A stretch of DNA of 58,657 nt, filler included, from Sphacelaria rigidula (taxonomy: Eukaryota): the NCBI GenBank assembly GCA_964200075.2. It is 6 parts of 6 records of this genome, joined end to end, with 100 filler letters (N's around TTAATTAATTAA, not from the genome) between each part and the next. Parts side by side here need not be neighbours in the genome. Positions count along the whole stretch, not along the records: positions 48,967 to 58,657 come from CAXNAA020007954.1; 5 more parts are not named here. One strand, 5' to 3'. The translations under genes were made by a program, and so were the position numbers. Under the pieces are notes generated by a model. It saw only the letters and a program-made list of their open reading frames with translations, was not told the DNA's origin and did no database searches. The first letter of the stretch is position 1; every line of letters starts with the position of its first letter. This document shows positions 8,385 to 58,657 of this stretch, in pieces.

Positions 8385-8780
8385 TCTTTGAACTGGGTAC
8401 TTTACAAAGATCTTCCTACCAGATGGAGCTATCTTTATATCGGGTACAGCTATCTTTGAATCGGGTGCAGCTATATCTGAAACCAGGCTGAACTATCATT
8501 TGAACAGGGTACACCTATGTTTGAACCGGGTACAACTGTCTTTGAGCGGGGCACACCAATCTTTGAACCGCGTATAACGATCTTTGCACCGGGCACAACT
8601 GCATTTGAACCGGGTACAACGATCTTCGAGCCAGGTACAAATATGTTTGAACCGGCTACAAATATCCGGAACCGGGCGCAACTGTGTTTGGACCGAGTAT
8701 AACTATATATAAACCGGGTATAACTATTGGGTACAGCTATCATTGAGCCGGGTACAGCTATCTCTCGACCGGGTACAACC
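8385..8780. repeat. 21-bp minisatellite, consensus ATCTTTGAACCGGGTACAACT
   Basis: About 17 diverged tandem units; the TTGAACCGGG motif continues dispersed to ~9620. Confidence 0.9.
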
Positions 8781-9695: not shown

Positions 9696-9795
9696 NNNNN
9701 NNNNNNNNNNNNNNNNNNNNNNNNNNNNNNNNNNNNNNNTTAATTAATTAANNNNNNNNNNNNNNNNNNNNNNNNNNNNNNNNNNNNNNNNNNNN
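9696..9795. other. Artificial contig-joining linker (N44-TTAATTAATTAA-N44)
   Basis: 100-nt spacer with stop codons in all six frames; identical to the other four linkers. Confidence 0.98.
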
Positions 9796-12943: not shown

Positions 12944-14700
12944 CTATTCAGCCGCTTCGACAGTCCCTGCGTCCAGATTTCCCCACCACTCCCGGTCCAT
13001 CGAGTGCTTCCAAAGTGTACCGTACTTGAAGGTCACCGCTTTTGTGTAGCTCTTCGGCACCTTGAGGTCCTTCGCCGGGCACTGAGGAAGCTCAGGCGCG
13101 TTGTGCGGCGGGAGCTCCTCGTGCTTGGCTACTTCGATGTCCTCGCGCGTCGCCAGCGTCGGCGCGTTCCGCACTGGTGTCCCCCCTCGCCTCCCTGATC
13201 TAGTGCCCTTGCTCTGATTTCCCGCGTTGACGACGTCGCGCGTGAGGAGAGCAGACAGCAAAGACTGCTTGTCCAGCTGCTCCATTAGTGCAATGCTATG
13301 ATGTACAAATGCGGAGTTTTCTGCGTTGTACTGCGCGGTCCTCGAACGCGTGCGTCCTGGCTGCCGGGGATCTGTCTCCCGACGCAACTCCTTCACGACC
13401 CTCGGCGGGAGAGGCGAGAAGAAATTGCCTCCAGTAGCAGATGGTGAACGCCCGGTTGAGGGAGGTGCTAACGGAATCGGCGAGGACCCGGGAGTGCTGG
13501 TGAATATCGGGGGCGAAGTCGGTGTCGGCGGCGTCGGCGGCGACTGCGATTGCTGAGGACGCGGCGGCGGCGGCGGCGGCGGAGATTGCTGCTGGCTCGA
13601 TGACGTCGGCGGCGGCGGCGGCGGCGGCTGCGAAGACGGTTGCGCGATCTCCAGAATAATTGAGTGTTGTTGTGCCGGTGGCGGAGGGGATTGCGTTGGT
13701 GGTGCAGCTACAGCAATCGCATCTTCCCCCTCCTTTCCGGCGAGCGGCGTCGCTGCCGACTGCAGGGGTTGACGCGGGACGGTCCACACGACGTTGTTGA
13801 TGTAGCAAACAACGCCAGTTGCAGCCTTCACTACCTTTACGGTTGTGGAAGAATGGTTGCTGCCGTTGTTAAGATAACGGCAGGCAACAGACTGCACATC
13901 CGATTTGTGTCGGCGGTTCACCCGCATCATACCTGGCTGGAGAAAAGGTATGATCTGCACAGGCGGAGCCTTTCCGGTGAAGACGCGATAGGGAGACGTC
14001 TGCCCCGGGTTAGCCGTTGTTGCCGAGCGGTTGAAGCCGTCCGCTGTCCAGACAGCTGCCTCCAGCCACAAGCGTTCCAAGTCATTTCCAAGATGAGGTA
14101 TGTCCCCGATACCGGCGTCCGGAAAAAGGCGAAACGCCTCCCGACGCGCTGCGTGCCCCGCCTTCATTACACGCCAAATTGCATTCTCAGCAACGCCCTC
14201 ATGCTTCGGGGTGTCCGGAGCGGTGTACTCGCGGCAAATCCGGGACTCATCGCAGAAACTGGCGAACGCCGCGGATGTGAACTCGCCGCCGTTGTCCATC
14301 CGAAAGCAGCGCGGCGAACCGATCACGCTCACGTCAGCGATATAGCGCTTCACTTTCGCGAGCGTGTCGGCCTTCCGCGATAGCCCGTACAGCATCATGA
14401 ATCGTGATTTGCTATCCACACAGGCCAGCATATACGTGGAGCCGCCAAGCGTCCGTGGATGTGGACCGGTGAGGTCGAGATGTACCATGCCGAGCACAGT
14501 GGTAGCGCGCAGACCTAGACGCCGTGGAATGCCAGTCCTTCGACCCTTCGCCTCTAGACAACCAGAGCACGGCTGCAGTGTACCAGTGAGCGTGATACCC
14601 TGTTATTCAGCAGTGGCTCGCAATAGGGCTTCATGGGCGTGTGCAAGGCAAAGGTGGAATAAGTTCATATCCACTTCACGAGTGGGTTTCCCTACGGTAA
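12944..14700 (-). pseudogene. Copia integrase (HHCC zinc finger + DDE core) with Pro-rich linker
   Basis: HLCLAH...CSGC, HLDLTGP, VDSKSR, RMDNGGEF, TAPDTPKHEGVAE; in-frame stop at ~14603. Confidence 0.9.
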
Positions 14701-19489: not shown

Positions 19490-19589
19490 NNNNNNNNNNN
19501 NNNNNNNNNNNNNNNNNNNNNNNNNNNNNNNNNTTAATTAATTAANNNNNNNNNNNNNNNNNNNNNNNNNNNNNNNNNNNNNNNNNNNN
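19490..19589. other. Artificial contig-joining linker
   Basis: N44-TTAATTAATTAA-N44. Confidence 0.98.
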
Positions 19590-24600: not shown

Positions 24601-27341
24601 GTGGGCGGGACTGCACCCTTGCAAGAAGAGTATATCTAACTTGTTCCTGGTTTCCTGCCGAATGGTACGGGCAAATACGAGCTTCAAGATGGGCCGCACA
24701 CTTCCCACTAACAATCCTATGTTCCTGTGTGCTACTTATCGCCAATATCGTTGATGAGTGTGCTTAACGTGGAGAACCCTTACGATGAACAAAATCATCC
24801 CGCGGAAATAGAATGGAGATCGTACCACACCAAGCGATCCCAGACCTTACACATGCGTGAAACTGAACGAACCAAACAAAATTGAATGCGTCCGCAACAC
24901 AGATGTTTTCTGCGGCGGAACTTGCGGGCCAGGCGGCCGTCGCACGCCTGACCCCTGAGGAACAAGAAGTCGAGGAGTGCTGCGGTCACACGAGCGCCAA
25001 CAAAGAGGCGGCCGAGGCTGCAGCAGCGGCCACACGATCTGGAAATGCAACATCGCAGTCGGCGCGTGCACCCGAAGAGTTTGAGGGGCTGGAGGCGGGG
25101 CATGTGTCGGACGCAACCCCCGATCTTCCTCGTCCCTGGAGCAGCAGCGGAGAGGCGAAGGCGGGCGATGTGGAGGAGATGACAGCGTCGCCAGATGATG
25201 CTGCGGCGCAGTCATTTGGTGACAATGCACAAGAGGGCGACGGCTGTCTACGCGAACTAAGCGGGGATGGAAATATCGTTTCGGATATATGTGAGGGGGG
25301 AGAATTGGCGAAGCCGTTAGCAGGAACAACAGCAATAGAGGCGGTAAAGCGAGAGGAGGTCGATAACGACATGCAGGGTATTGATGCTGCTACTCCGGCA
25401 GATGAAAGAGGCCAACTGCAAAAATGCCCCCAAATGGCGACAACAACGGGCTCAGGACAGGAGCGGCCAACATTGGTACCTGCTGATCCAGCGCGACGCC
25501 ACTCTGAGATTCCCGATGAGGGATCTTTGACGACAGTTCAGCTTTCCAGCACGAGCGAACGAATGGACGTGGATGGCGATGACGCGGACGATGAAACGGG
25601 CGCCGCGTTGTCTTCAGAAGTTGCGGTGGCGTCCGGTAGTGCAGCACCGGCAAACCCGCAAAAAATCTCGCGAACAACACCACCGCCACCTGTACAGCAA
25701 CCCCTTACCCGACCAACGGCGCCTACCACCGCAGGAATACCACAGCCCCTCGACGAACTCTTGGCGATGGGATTTCCAAGAGAGGATGCGGTGTTGGCGC
25801 TGTCGGCGACGGGAGGATCCATCCCAGACGCAGCTTATCGATTGTTAACTGCGCCAGCCGCGACAAATACATCAGGATCCCGGGGACAAACAACAGTGGG
25901 AGCGGAGATGGAAGTGGATGGAGTGTCTTACCCCGAGGGCGGCGGCAGAGGGCAGAAAGCTGAGGTGGTGCGGGTGTCGCGAGACGTGCGCCTTCATCGG
26001 GCGGCAGAGACCATTGCTGGGCACCGCGATGTAGTCGCCGCTATTCAGGTATATTTATTTGTGAGGGAGGAAGTGGGGGGGGTGGAGTCGAGAAAGATTT
26101 TGGTGTGGTAGACGTGCAGTAGAGCAGGTTCAAGCCTCCAGGCTTCCTTGGCCTAGCCGGACGGTTGCAGGAAGAAATGTTCCGCTAATTCGCGGTTTTC
26201 GGTGTTACCTAGGGTTCGTCGTGCAACTGTGTATGGCCCTCGTCATGAATATGACGTGATCGTAGCGCACCATTTTGTGCTGTTGCCTTTGCTTGTCGAT
26301 GGCCTCCACCTCGATCTGATGTACGATGCGGAAGTTGCCGGCGAAGTCACCCTGAAGTCCGCGTGCTTATTCTCCAACATCGCGGCCCTCTGTATCCTGT
26401 CGCACGGTCGGGTCGAGCTTGTTTCCGCACAAGTGGGCACTCGACGTGTTCAAGATGTGATATTTTTTCGTTGAAACCGTATACGGAGAAAGGACTTCGC
26501 TCCACCCAACCGTTCTGGTGACGAGGAGTATGCCACAAAATGTTCTACACCTCATGATTTTGAGGGTACTTGAAGCCCCATGAATTCGTCTCGGTGTCCT
26601 TTCGCCATTTTGGCGTTTGTATTCTTACTCCTCCTCTTTGGTCTCTCTTGCCGTGCTTCGCCGTGCGACGGTATCATCTGCAATACCGTAAAAATCAGTG
26701 CTTGAAAGTGTTAACAGGAATGTTCCGGAATCTGATGCAGCATCCGGGAGAGGAAAAGTTCCGCAGGATACGACGCTCCAATGGAAAGTTTAAGGTAACA
26801 CGAGAAGGAACGAAATCTGTGCGCATCTCCCCCCTCCTCCCCTCCCCCCGTACCCACCCCTGCGCCTTCCGAGGGATGTCGGTAAACGACTTTTGTATAT
26901 TGTCGCTGGTATTTTGGATTGTCACTGATATTTGGAGTTTCGCCCGTCAATTGAAAAAACCTCATGAAGCCCCTGTCCTCTCCCGGGAAAGAGCGATATT
27001 GCCACGAACAATGACAGCAAGTACCGTTGAAATGCACGTTACCGCTCCGTCTATTCCTGTCACTTCTCGCTGGAATTTCCATCTCTACTCGACCGTATGC
27101 TGGCGTCGTGCAAAAACCCTCTCTGAACACGGTACCTGTGTCCGCCACATTGTGCTTTGCCCATCAGGCGTCGGTGGCAACAATCCCCGGCGGCATCGAT
27201 GTTTTATTGGCTGCTGGCTTCGAGGAAAGAGGTGTTGACACTCTGGAGCTCGGTCGCCAGGATCCCGGTTTAATTTGGTTGGCCAAGAGTACTCTCGAGG
27301 CGTGTATCGAGAGGCTTGCGGTTAAAGGCGTAGACGTTTGA
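21603..27341 (+). CDS. WSS1: Wss1/WLM-family zinc metalloprotease with UBL-like N-terminus, UBA and PUB domains (5' exon(s) unresolved, ~20.9-21.3 kb)
   Basis: In-frame GT-AG exons 21603-21895, 22427-22580, 23154-23252, 23640-23729, 24335-24511, 24903-26048, 26699-26794 and 27168-27341. Motifs: ILRGKAL..DTL (UBL-like); LADDPGI..VL..HRWTVG.L.E, LGLN.N.G..I.LRLR and HELAHN..H (WLM); LLAMGF.R.DA..AL..TGG (UBA); N...HP.EEKFRRIR.SN..F..GG..VL..AGF (PUB). Confidence 0.92.
22835..23130. repeat. Repeat family B copy (inverted) in WLM gene intron
   Basis: Reverse complement of 7640-7935 and 5460-5750. Confidence 0.8.
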
Positions 27342-29282: not shown

Positions 29283-29382
29283 NNNNNNNNNNNNNNNNNN
29301 NNNNNNNNNNNNNNNNNNNNNNNNNNTTAATTAATTAANNNNNNNNNNNNNNNNNNNNNNNNNNNNNNNNNNNNNNNNNNNN
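29283..29382. other. Artificial contig-joining linker
   Basis: N44-TTAATTAATTAA-N44. Confidence 0.98.
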
Positions 29383-39074: not shown

Positions 39075-39174
39075 NNNNNNNNNNNNNNNNNNNNNNNNNN
39101 NNNNNNNNNNNNNNNNNNTTAATTAATTAANNNNNNNNNNNNNNNNNNNNNNNNNNNNNNNNNNNNNNNNNNNN
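39075..39174. other. Artificial contig-joining linker
   Basis: N44-TTAATTAATTAA-N44. Confidence 0.98.
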
Positions 39175-48866: not shown

Positions 48867-48966
48867 NNNNNNNNNNNNNNNNNNNNNNNNNNNNNNNNNN
48901 NNNNNNNNNNTTAATTAATTAANNNNNNNNNNNNNNNNNNNNNNNNNNNNNNNNNNNNNNNNNNNN
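48867..48966. other. Artificial contig-joining linker
   Basis: N44-TTAATTAATTAA-N44. Confidence 0.98.
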
Positions 48967-55481: not shown

Positions 55482-55935
55482 ACTTCTATGGCAACGAATC
55501 TCGATTTGTACAAATATGAGGATTTCAGCCCGTTTGCAGGCGATTTTCCCCCGTGGATTAATTTTTCGGATCTCAGTCCGTTGGGCAAGGTTTTTCGCCT
55601 AGCTGTGAGCAAACCAGATCAACTGTCCGATGTTTTGGGCGTTAACGTTCCATACACCACATTTCTGCTGAAATCGGGACACTCCAGCACCTCTCTCGAT
55701 TTTTATGAAGAAATCGGGGAAGATGTGGGGAGGGTGTCCCGATTTGGGCAGAAAGGTGGTGAACCAAACGTCAACGTCCAGATAATCGGAGAATTTATCT
55801 TGTTTGCTCACAGCTAGGCGAAAAACATTGCCCAACGGACTGGGGTCCGAAAAATCAATCCACGGAAGGAGAATCGCCTTCAGACGGGCTGAAATCCTCA
55901 GATTCGTACAAATCAATATTCGTTGCCATAAAAGT
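55482..55935. mobile_element. ~455-bp near-complete foldback MITE inserted in repeat family C
   Basis: ACTTCTATGGCAACGAAT...ATTCGTTGCCATAAAAGT; arms pair up to a short loop at ~55705. Family C resumes at 55943 (TGGCGCAAAAATTGCG, cf. 4153). Confidence 0.85.
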
Positions 55936-56328
55936 AGATCTAATGGCGCAAAAATTGCGTCGAGACGTTCTTGACCAGCGGTCAACCTTTGTTTCCTCTT
56001 TTTCGAGAACCGGGCCTGAAAAACCGTGGATTCGGTTATTCGAACCGGTGATGATTCGTCCGAACCGTGGAACAGAGATAGCTACAATCTCGTTCAGATT
56101 GAATACCCAAAATTTACTCCACGGCTAATGACGAACGCAATTCCCGGCCAATATGCACAAATGTGGTATCATACTGACCGCATGAACAGACGAAGAGAGT
56201 AACATAGCCGGATTTTTGTTTAAGGCTATAGCGGCTATGGACAAAAGTATGTTTCGACCAATCAGCGCCTTTCAAAATGTTCCGAATTTGAAAACACGAA
56301 TTCCAAGCCCAATTTCCACCGAATCTTT

Positions 56329-57784
56329 CACACCCTGGACAATACAATATGTACTATATATTGCCCGCTCAATATATCGAGGCGTCGAGTGGTCAATATA
56401 TATTAGGCGAGCAATATGATGACACGAGAGAGGATCAATATATATATATTGTGCCATCAATATATCAAGGCCTGCGACATGCAATATATATTGACCGAAC
56501 AATATATCACGACACGCGCCACCTCAATATATATTAGCCGAGTAATATGTTGGTGCGAGAAGGCACAAATATATATTTATCGAGTAATATATTTGCTGAC
56601 ACCCGAAGCGGCGATATATATTGCCGCCCCAATATGTCATGCGTCAATGCGTTCAATATATATTGGATGGACAATACACGAGGGAACCGACGGTCACAAT
56701 ATATGTTGATGTAGCAAAATATATTGATTTTCAACATATAGATTGGAAAGTATATTGGAATTAGTATTATGGCCAGTTCTTTGTTCGCGGGCGGCATTCA
56801 AAGACGTATTTTACATGCCGAAAATGCTCAATGTATTTCTCCGCAAGCGTGTTTAATATATATTGGCTACACAATAGCTATCCGATCAGCGTGCGCAATA
56901 TATATGAGAAAAACAATACTTCTGCATGGTTTGCGTTCAATATATATTATGGTAACAATATGCTACGCATCGCCTCGACTCAATATATATTGAAACTTCA
57001 ATACATACACGGCCGGCATGCACAATATATATTGAATGTTTTATTCTCGGAGCAACTGCATGTCCAATACATATTGACATACATTACTTCATGATCATGA
57101 CACGAGCAATATATGTTGTTGCTTCAATATCTCCGAGGACATCTCAACACAATATATATTGAAAGGACAATATTTGCACTGGCTTCAATACAAAGTATTG
57201 GAATCATATTGGAACATACTATATTGTCCAGGGTATAAGCAACACAGCCCTGGTGACCACAGGGGTACCAAGAGGCGCATATCGACCCGCGTTTCCTTTC
57301 GTCGTGATGTTTAACCAAGATGTTTACATTACATGCTGGAAAGGGGATGGGCGACCCCGCACCGGTGACCAGATATATATATATATATCAAACGTATTCG
57401 ACAACTTTCCGAAGTAATGCACGCGAACTTCTGCGGCTCCCTTTAAAGCTTTTCCCAATCTGCACGGGCTCCGGCATCCATCGTGTCTGGATCTCTCCTA
57501 GAGCGTGCACGATACTTATAATACCTAGTATATATTGACCGGCCATTACATCGTCACCCACGCAAACCCAATATATATTGACCGGTCAATATGTTCTCAT
57601 CAATGCGACCCTAATATATATTGGTCGTGCAATATGTTGGCGCCCACGCTGCCCCAATGTATATTGATGGGACAAGATGTGTTTAACCCAATAGTACCAT
57701 TATATATTGGGCGGGCAATATGTATGCAGTCCCACGTCATCAATATATTTCGGGTGCGTAATATACATGTGCAGTCTGAGGGTA

Positions 57785-57815
<31 letters not shown>

Positions 57816-57893
57816 TACACCAGTAATATATCGCAAAATTCCAATATGATCGACTAATATATATTGGGAACATATTGTATTGTCCAGGGTGTG
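56329..57893. mobile_element. Non-coding TIR element carrying phased CAATATATATTG palindrome-spacer arrays
   Basis: Perfect 24-bp TIR CACACCCTGGACAATACAATATGT (56329-56352 / 57870-57893); a further degenerate right end at 57211-57237; about 24 units of 42-43 bp. Confidence 0.8.
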
Positions 57894-58657
57894 GAAACTT
57901 TACATGGTTCAAATCGTAGCAACCGTCATCAGCTTGGGAATCCAACGGGAGAAACAGATCTGAAAACGGTTCCAACGGGGTCGAATTTTGCCCAAAAACG
58001 TAATGTTTCGGTGATATGGAGCTTTGGCATCGTCTAATTCCCACTAATGATACGTACCAAAGACCCACGGAGCCTCGAGATGAATGTCCTTTTATCTGTT
58101 GGAGAAAAGCTGAGATCATCCTCAAATTTGGCGGTTCCGTAGGTATTGATGCTCCAAATGGAAATTTTGTATTCTTGGCAAGAATTCAAAGTTTCTCCGT
58201 TCTGAACCGGCCTCTGGGGGTCCCAGAATTAAGACCCCAGGAAACCGGTACAGAACGCCCCAACATCAAAATGTTGATATCTGAGGGATAGATGTTATCC
58301 CAAAGAACATGTGTATCAATTTTCGTTGCTCAACTCGAAAAACTGAATCGGTTGGGGGTCTTTGATCGTAAAAACAACCCCCCAAAAGGGCGATTCTGTG
58401 CTTTAATCAAGTAGTTACAAACTTTTTAATACTTCAGCGCACGTTTTGGCATTTCCTCACGCCGTTTTTTCGAGTTAGACCACGAAAATTTGCACACATG
58501 TTCTGGAGGGCACTATCTAAAACTCGAAGGTCGGGGTTTTCAATTTTTTTATTTGTGACTTTTTATCCAAGGTCGCGGTTGACCTACTTGACCGGGGGAG
58601 GGGTCAGATCCGGACTATCTCGACACCAAAAAAAGAAAAAAAACGGTCTTCGAGTTT

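Follow-up and report, generated by a model that had tools for sequence, protein, structure and literature searches.

Non-autonomous hAT transposons with subterminal repeats are standard, and the subterminal transposase-binding motifs of Ac/Ds and CACTA/EnSpm elements are described as scattered, with no fixed lattice; CACTA elements are further characterized by target-site duplications (TSDs) of 2-3 bp and by a second binding protein. The Hermes transposase places two BED domains cooperatively on a quasi-palindrome and a third on a site nearby, phasing is critical in that a shift of one base impairs cleavage, and mutation of sites beyond bp 50 is described as having little effect (Lannes et al., 2023, PMC10368747).

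The locus described here, from Sphacelaria rigidula, is in our estimation (probability about 0.72) a 1.6-kb non-autonomous brown-algal hAT whose repeated units are iterated transposase docking sites, favouring a gene-less element in the competition for transposase. It lies in a window of 58,657 nucleotides (the whole stretch of DNA that was analysed), composed of six contigs of near-equal length separated by N runs at 9696-9795, 19490-19589, 29283-29382, 39075-39174 and 48867-48966; the real neighbourhood of the element is the last contig only (48967-58657). The unrelated contigs contain an integrase-domain ORF (12944-14602, minus strand), a UBA-domain ORF (24867-26111, plus strand) and a 21-bp tandem array (8429-8777). 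An earlier note had drawn attention to a phased array of CRISPR-like appearance, and such an array indeed exists, with 24 units in one orientation inside an element bounded by perfect 24-bp terminal inverted repeats (TIRs). The features are as follows.

56321..56328, plus strand: left 8-bp target-site duplication GAATCTTT, 8 bp being the TSD length of the family
56329..56352, plus strand: left TIR of 24 bp, CACACCCTGGACAATACAATATGT, its first 16 bases identical to those of the right TIR in the hAT loci L188 and L181
56352..56720, plus strand: array A, 9 units in the window copy (40-bp deletion) and 10 in the family consensus, mean period 42.3 bp
56739..56775, plus strand: decayed right-end-like tail closing array A, recognized by eye when the tails of the three arrays were aligned
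56854..57173, plus strand: array B, 8 units, mean period 42.3 bp
57214..57237, plus strand: inner right end, apparently dead, terminating in GTATA in place of GTGTG
57238..57525, no strand assigned: non-array interior, derived by deletion from the interior found in a non-coding subfamily of 3.6 kb (L033, L034)
57526..57835, plus strand: array C, 7 units, period 43 bp, the final core grown into an (AT)n run
57870..57893, minus strand: right TIR, perfect inverse of the left TIR
57894..57901, plus strand: right 8-bp target-site duplication GAAACTTT, a 7/8 match to the left one

Each unit comprises three half-sites, namely the inverted pair CAATAT/ATATTG and a third site located 18 bp from the unit start. 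All 23 core starts previously named lie within two mismatches of the palindrome CAATATATATTG (17 within one mismatch, six perfect), and a 24th unit, at 56352, had been missed. Scanning of the whole window at up to two mismatches revealed no such core outside the element, and half-sites numbered 57 within its 1,565 bp vs 14 across the remaining 8,126 bp of the contig. The reported period of mostly 42-43 bp was borne out by 17 of the 20 within-array intervals, the off-period ones (45, 45 and 46 bp) containing AT expansions or a 40-bp deletion, and autocorrelation at lag 42/43 reached 0.41, 0.41 and 0.51 in the three arrays, in each case above all 200 resamples. Other details of the earlier description hold in part. 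The CAATAY third half-site is exact in only 12 of 23 units of the window copy, although the family consensus is more regular, and the spacer measures 18-19 nt behind a 6-nt half-site, the proposed 16-17 nt being correct if the half-site is counted as 8 nt. The longest ATG ORF of the element encodes 97 amino acids, and an Rfam search of the element returned no match.

The element is a dispersed DNA transposon present in many copies. Its two TIRs match at 24 of 24 positions (56329-56352 vs 57870-57893), as had been reported, and the genome search proposed in the earlier note, carried out with a 17-base TIR pattern, yielded 356 exact matches vs 0 for the reversed control, a count that takes in inner ends and some sibling elements; a search with the element itself produced 778 candidates, and the 40 of these that were scored yielded 94 matches. 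Thirty loci were taken, 20 of them with both ends aligned and the remaining 10 missing one end within the stretch. Among the 20 full-length copies, an 8-bp TSD was exact in 9 and had at most one mismatch in 15, and the alternative lengths of 2-7 and 9-11 bp were exact in at most 2 (2/20 at 2 bp, 1/20 at 3 bp); the target consensus approximates RWATATWT. Empty-site joints were found in contigs of other runs, where the flanks are united with a net loss of 1,573 bp, equivalent to the element plus one 8-mer; because the flanks are themselves repeated, these empty sites are probably paralogous. Both the TSD of the window copy (GAATCTTT/GAAACTTT) and its dead inner right end at 57214-57237 are additions to the earlier note, and in the copies where this inner end was detected it is followed by the same AGCAACAC-type flank. 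The surroundings of the element (about 55800-56328 and 57894-58600) consist of other high-copy repeats, of which empty versions occur in other runs, and a long inverted repeat is located at 55482-55935. Against viral contigs, the 17-base TIR pattern gave 10 single matches, taken as chance, and a two-unit pattern had no match in viral and metagenome contigs.

A coding partner with the same TIR, for which the earlier note had suggested looking, was sought by protein search in a genome containing at least 139 matches to the hAT dimerisation domain (PF05699). This search uncovered a hAT family of which six loci, chosen from about a dozen similar matches, all end at CACACCCTG(G/T)ACAA and have unrelated flanks. 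L188 is a 6,779-bp (6.8-kb) copy with both TIRs, flanked by GAAAAATC/GGAAAATC (a 7/8 TSD), and L187, which has lost internal sequence, retains both TIRs but has non-matching flanks. The first 16 TIR bases of the window element agree at 16/16 positions with the right ends of L188 and L181 and at 15/16 with the left end of L188; over the whole TIR, the match to the family is 18-19/24 (19/24 for the right TIR). A profile of ten C-terminal exons of this clade matches Hermes (E=5e-12), and PF05699 is recognized in 8 of its 10 members, including L181 of the partner family, but not in L188 or L187; the exons of L188 itself gave no hAT Pfam match, and this copy looks frameshifted. An N-terminal exon with the pattern C-x5-C...H-x3/4-H is conserved in five loci. 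This zinc-finger exon had no Pfam or Foldseek match, its AlphaFold model (pLDDT 74) had no convincing counterpart, with ZBED1/2 reached at no more than Z ~2.1-2.2, and a VIA search did not confirm its BED identity; when an exon of L188 was compared with longer proteins no homologue appeared, a negative of little weight.

The ends of L188-type elements also carry a 42/43-bp array, with autocorrelation values of 0.40-0.41 on the right and 0.36 on the left, vs 0.28 in an internal control; the left-end signal of L188 is marginal (0.361 vs 0.358 for the best shuffle) and that of L187 clearer. Its unit is CRATAYACATGG-N7-CAATRR, with a mean period of 42.4 bp and a motif 66% alike between units, and its two end arrays, compared on the same strand, agree at 87% and are hence co-oriented, as in the window element. 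The two families differ in that the third site of L188 lies 1 bp further out and the palindrome is CRATAYACATGG instead of CAATATATATTG; spacers are unrelated across families (likeness 0.28 vs 0.29 for the null). BLAST similarity between the window element and the L181-L189 family is essentially restricted to the TIR, which makes L188 a less plausible parent without affecting the assignment to hAT. Judged from the sequences, the L188 family is not the direct parent, nor does the window element appear to be an internal deletion derivative of it; the true parent is probably a sister family missed in the fragmented assembly. Among 70 hAT loci (drawn from the 139 PF05699 matches and close relatives), none had the window TIR as its own end.

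Several leads were discarded in this search. The 699-aa ORF in L046, a long copy, belongs to an inserted copia-type reverse transcriptase and is not the transposase. The interior of the 3.6-kb subfamily contained no transposase remnant, and its match to hAT loci corresponded to a different dispersed repeat. A TIR 1.4 kb behind the hAT ORF of L078/L074 belongs to a composite repeat that also occurs without the hAT, that hAT itself ending in CACACGTCGGACAG, and a lone TIR behind the L143 hAT match comes from a 170-bp sibling that is truncated. The ends of related hAT families read CACACGTCGGACAG or CACGGTTAGGACAA (L074/L103, L075/L081, L080/L082/L083/L084/L086/L108), with a CAC-n5-GGACA terminus in common; their transposases have relatives in several brown algae, the named matches being in Ectocarpus, Scytosiphon, Ascophyllum and Hapterophycus. 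Another family among the hAT loci (L106:2575-6893, L114:124-2268, L117:3439-5305) shows TAGGGTTGCTCATCAAC TIRs and perfect 8-bp TSDs.

The history of the units was reconstructed from the family consensus, which spans 1,648 bp and contains arrays of 10, 8 and 7 units (25 in total) with mean periods of 42.3, 42.3 and 43.0 bp. The notion of a cassette with variable inserts did not survive the alignment of copies: orthologous linker and spacer were found in 435 of 440 slots (22 units in 20 full-length copies), four of the others being absent and one less than 60% identical. Mean slot identity was 0.92-0.98 at every array position, with no polar end. Thus, the alignment check for gain or loss of spacers at one end, run on these 20 copies, revealed positional inheritance without polar gain. 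Changes of unit size were confined to three of the 20 copies, as deletions of 40, 41 and 86 bp, and the remaining indels of at least 10 bp do not correspond to whole units. Nor is this an ordinary minisatellite decaying uniformly from one 42-bp consensus, an outcome by which the earlier note would have been refuted, as identity from unit to unit is 89% in motifs vs about 33% in spacers. Linkers and spacers differ between units, as had been noted, yet the spacers are not unrelated, since identity between neighbouring spacers is 0.40 vs 0.305 after shuffling (reached in 0/500 shuffles). The likeness is evident in the right array (0.43 vs 0.27, 0/500 shuffles) and not significant in the left array (127/500 shuffles). 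Compared with 473 kb of other DNA of the genome, spacers showed no excess of exact matches (longest 11.2 vs 11.1 for shuffles). The weak spacer likeness together with the 89% motif identity indicates that the units are old tandem duplicates in which linkers drifted and the motif did not, and their origin through old tandem duplication is statistically established.

A right-end-like tail closes every array, being decayed after array A, near-intact and ending in GTATA after array B, and functional after array C. Copies with two or three tandem right-end modules were also observed (L031:134-2008, C266 and C18635 of G000, and L007), from which end duplication appears recurrent. Taken together, the array tails and the extra modules of other copies suggest that the element grew by duplication of an "array plus right end" module, and that its three arrays would derive from repeated events of this kind.

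Whether the motifs are under constraint depends on the stage considered. Divergence of inserted copies from the consensus was 0.044 in cores, 0.041 in half-sites, 0.044 in N6 linkers, 0.040 in spacers and 0.046 elsewhere; motifs and spacers thus decay alike after insertion (~4%), neutrally, which implies no detectable host function. A different picture emerged between subfamilies. The 3.6-kb subfamily is longer and has its arrays in common with the 1.6-kb element, and its consensus, built from 10 left and 8 right arms, differs at 0/45 positions of the TIR, 9/297 of the core, 16/194 of the third half-site, 17/148 of N6, 47/361 of the spacer and 54/377 outside the arrays (motif vs variable positions, p=3e-5). 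With A/T sites only, the difference was 9/313 (2.9%) in motifs vs 38/221 (17%) in spacers (p=1e-8); at G/C sites (5/65 in motifs vs 31/294) constraint was not significant (p=0.65). Selection for mobilisation would be expected to constrain lineages that transpose and to leave resting copies free to drift, and the data point to selection during transposition, although gene conversion among the cores of master copies could mimic part of the signal. The earlier proposal that a TIR element harbours a phased scaffold for binding, maintained by selection, is strengthened by this constraint and by the period shared with a transposase-coding element having the same TIR start; binding itself would be the function that best fits these patterns.

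The mechanism we propose is as follows. The element would move by cut-and-paste, relying in trans on the transposase of a hAT from the CAC-n5-GGACA-terminus clade; its copies carry 8-bp duplications at RWATATWT-like targets. Mutation would have scrambled the linkers, motif and spacing being kept in lineages still transposing, presumably by selection. Each unit has a Hermes-like geometry of palindrome pair plus third site, at which transposase may bind. A period of 42.3-43 bp places successive clusters on about the same helical face, where N-terminal zinc fingers of the transposase could dock iteratively, three sites per unit as in the left end of Hermes. Such a docking array would raise the affinity of the ends, allowing a gene-less element to compete for scarce transposase.

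An unlikely reading, though one that several observations invite, is that the element is the same non-autonomous hAT but its lattice is kept by concerted evolution among AT-rich palindromic cores, with no binding function beyond the terminal units. The unit-length deletions between cores, the slippage of cores as (AT)n runs, the confinement of constraint to A/T sites and the lack of long arrays in short siblings would all fit. Nevertheless, conservation extends to the third half-site, which stands apart, and to the lengths of the linkers, while the intervening bases diverge, the same period occurs in the coding hAT despite a motif that varies substantially between its units, and homogenisation is not visible after insertion. 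There is a still smaller chance that the units serve a host protein or the organization of chromatin, aiding end pairing through a DNA-bending protein or through nucleosome phasing (four units correspond to 170 bp). The period equals about four helical turns and the AT-rich motifs alternate with linkers of 58% GC, as might be expected in that case, and a host bending factor has been proposed for distal end sequence in the Hermes study (PMC10368747). However, the CAATA motif doubles as the inner part of the TIR, and it differs between two transposon families of one genome, as expected if it tracks each transposase rather than a single host protein.

Assignment to another superfamily with CA..TG ends, namely CACTA/EnSpm, KDZ (Kyakuja-Dileera-Zisupton) or P, is very improbable. 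The earlier note had invoked CACTA/EnSpm, an identity contradicted by the 8-bp TSD and by a partner-type element that is a hAT. The CAC..GTG terminus of CACTA is indeed present, as CACAC..GTGTG, but it is also the terminus of a brown-algal hAT. Since Ectocarpus EnSpm families have 2-bp TSDs (supplementary table of PMC12477816), the 8-bp TSD excludes CACTA/EnSpm. KDZ elements also have 8-bp TSDs (lengths taken from PMC12730594) and, in Ectocarpus, tandem-repeat termini; however, KDZ termini there are of the GGG or CAGTA type, P elements there have a 7-bp TSD, and the start of the window TIR is identical to that of a hAT in the same genome, so that L188 largely refutes these assignments. Searches for KDZ (PF18758) and for the P-element RNase H family gave no match, the controls being likewise blank. 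Finally, a CRISPR-like cassette array acquiring foreign spacers and yielding guide RNAs is scarcely credible, since the constant motif and length with differing spacers that suggest it in one copy are accompanied by orthologous slots without polarity, related neighbouring spacers and spacer matches no longer than those of shuffles.

Returning to transposase docking on a non-autonomous hAT, the short relatives of the element bear on how much of the array would be required. An abundant sibling of 130-143 bp has CACACCCTGGACA-type TIRs and 8-bp TSDs (L073, L087, L104, L111, L128, L156, L158, L187), which agree at 7-8 of 8 positions in all nine examples picked, and a 170-bp sibling is also present, the pattern covering it giving 384 matches. 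These siblings of 130-170 bp are too short for a long array, yet they moved; their spread with similar TIRs, together with the small contribution of distal Hermes sites, suggests that the array need not be complete. At L047:217-2811, the TIR start recurs on the end of a longer element that has no array cores and, to the eye, what resembles a large internal inverted repeat; its other end is off the contig.

The target preference of the family resembles its own core. In L044:1852-3699, a full copy is inserted in the palindromic core of an array of another copy, with the TSD TTCAATAT, and in L043:1928-2097 a 170-bp sibling is inserted in an array core, with the TSD CAATATAT/CAAAATAT. A broader proposal, which we put forward tentatively and regard as doubtful in its entirety, is that a brown-algal hAT clade turned a Hermes-type single three-site cluster into a lattice with one cluster per four helical turns, on which several transposase rings would be loaded next to one another along a single DNA face. 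Non-autonomous elements would then lengthen the lattice through end-module duplication and out-compete or sequester transposase, and the cores, because each resembles the preferred target site, might serve as landing pads for their own kind. If true, the lattice would constitute a phase-encoded end code.

With regard to known systems, the likeness to CRISPR arrays lies in the look alone (constant repeat, variable spacer, fixed period), since here no acquisition or polarity was found, comparison with 473 kb of the genome gave no sign of foreign origin, and the spacers stem from tandem duplication; a candidate eukaryotic CRISPR-like array is thereby removed, as it is transposon end DNA. A nearer relative is hAT-2_Ec32 (Repbase hAT-2_ESi) of Ectocarpus (Dinatale et al., 2025, PMC12477816), likewise a hAT of a brown alga, which ends in CACAC-GTGTG and has a short TIR (21 bp vs 24 bp here). 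It is described as a single autonomous copy of 8.9 kb whose TSD is only assumed, and its table entry, by which alone it was compared, makes no mention of a subterminal array. The CACAC-terminus type of hAT, listed for a single Ectocarpus copy lacking a TSD, is thus extended to a family that is abundant and whose 8-bp TSDs are clear. Ac/Ds and CACTA/EnSpm subterminal repeats likewise provide many short direct and inverted motifs near the ends (Ac as cited in PMC10368747). The left end of Hermes (Lannes et al., 2023, PMC10368747) resembles each unit in its quasi-palindromic pair and third site at a fixed distance, its AT-rich context and its exact phasing. Hermes, however, is described with a single cluster, adjacent to its left TIR, its other sites being scattered, whereas clusters are iterated here every 42-43 bp and co-oriented at both ends, with about 10 per end in the coding element and 25 in the non-autonomous consensus, and the motif is CAATA/CRATA instead of AAGT.

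In the literature covered, to which most subscription journals and Repbase did not belong, no description of phased or periodic hAT subterminal arrays was found. The locus offers a natural test case for the open question of why hAT elements need hundreds of bases beyond the TIR, as this region is here a strict 42-43-bp lattice, constrained only while transposing and represented by two versions of the motif within a single genome. The ordinary part of this comparison is thus a hAT that carries subterminal repeats, and the unusual part is the existence of 10-25 strictly phased units at 42-43 bp, common to coding and non-coding elements.
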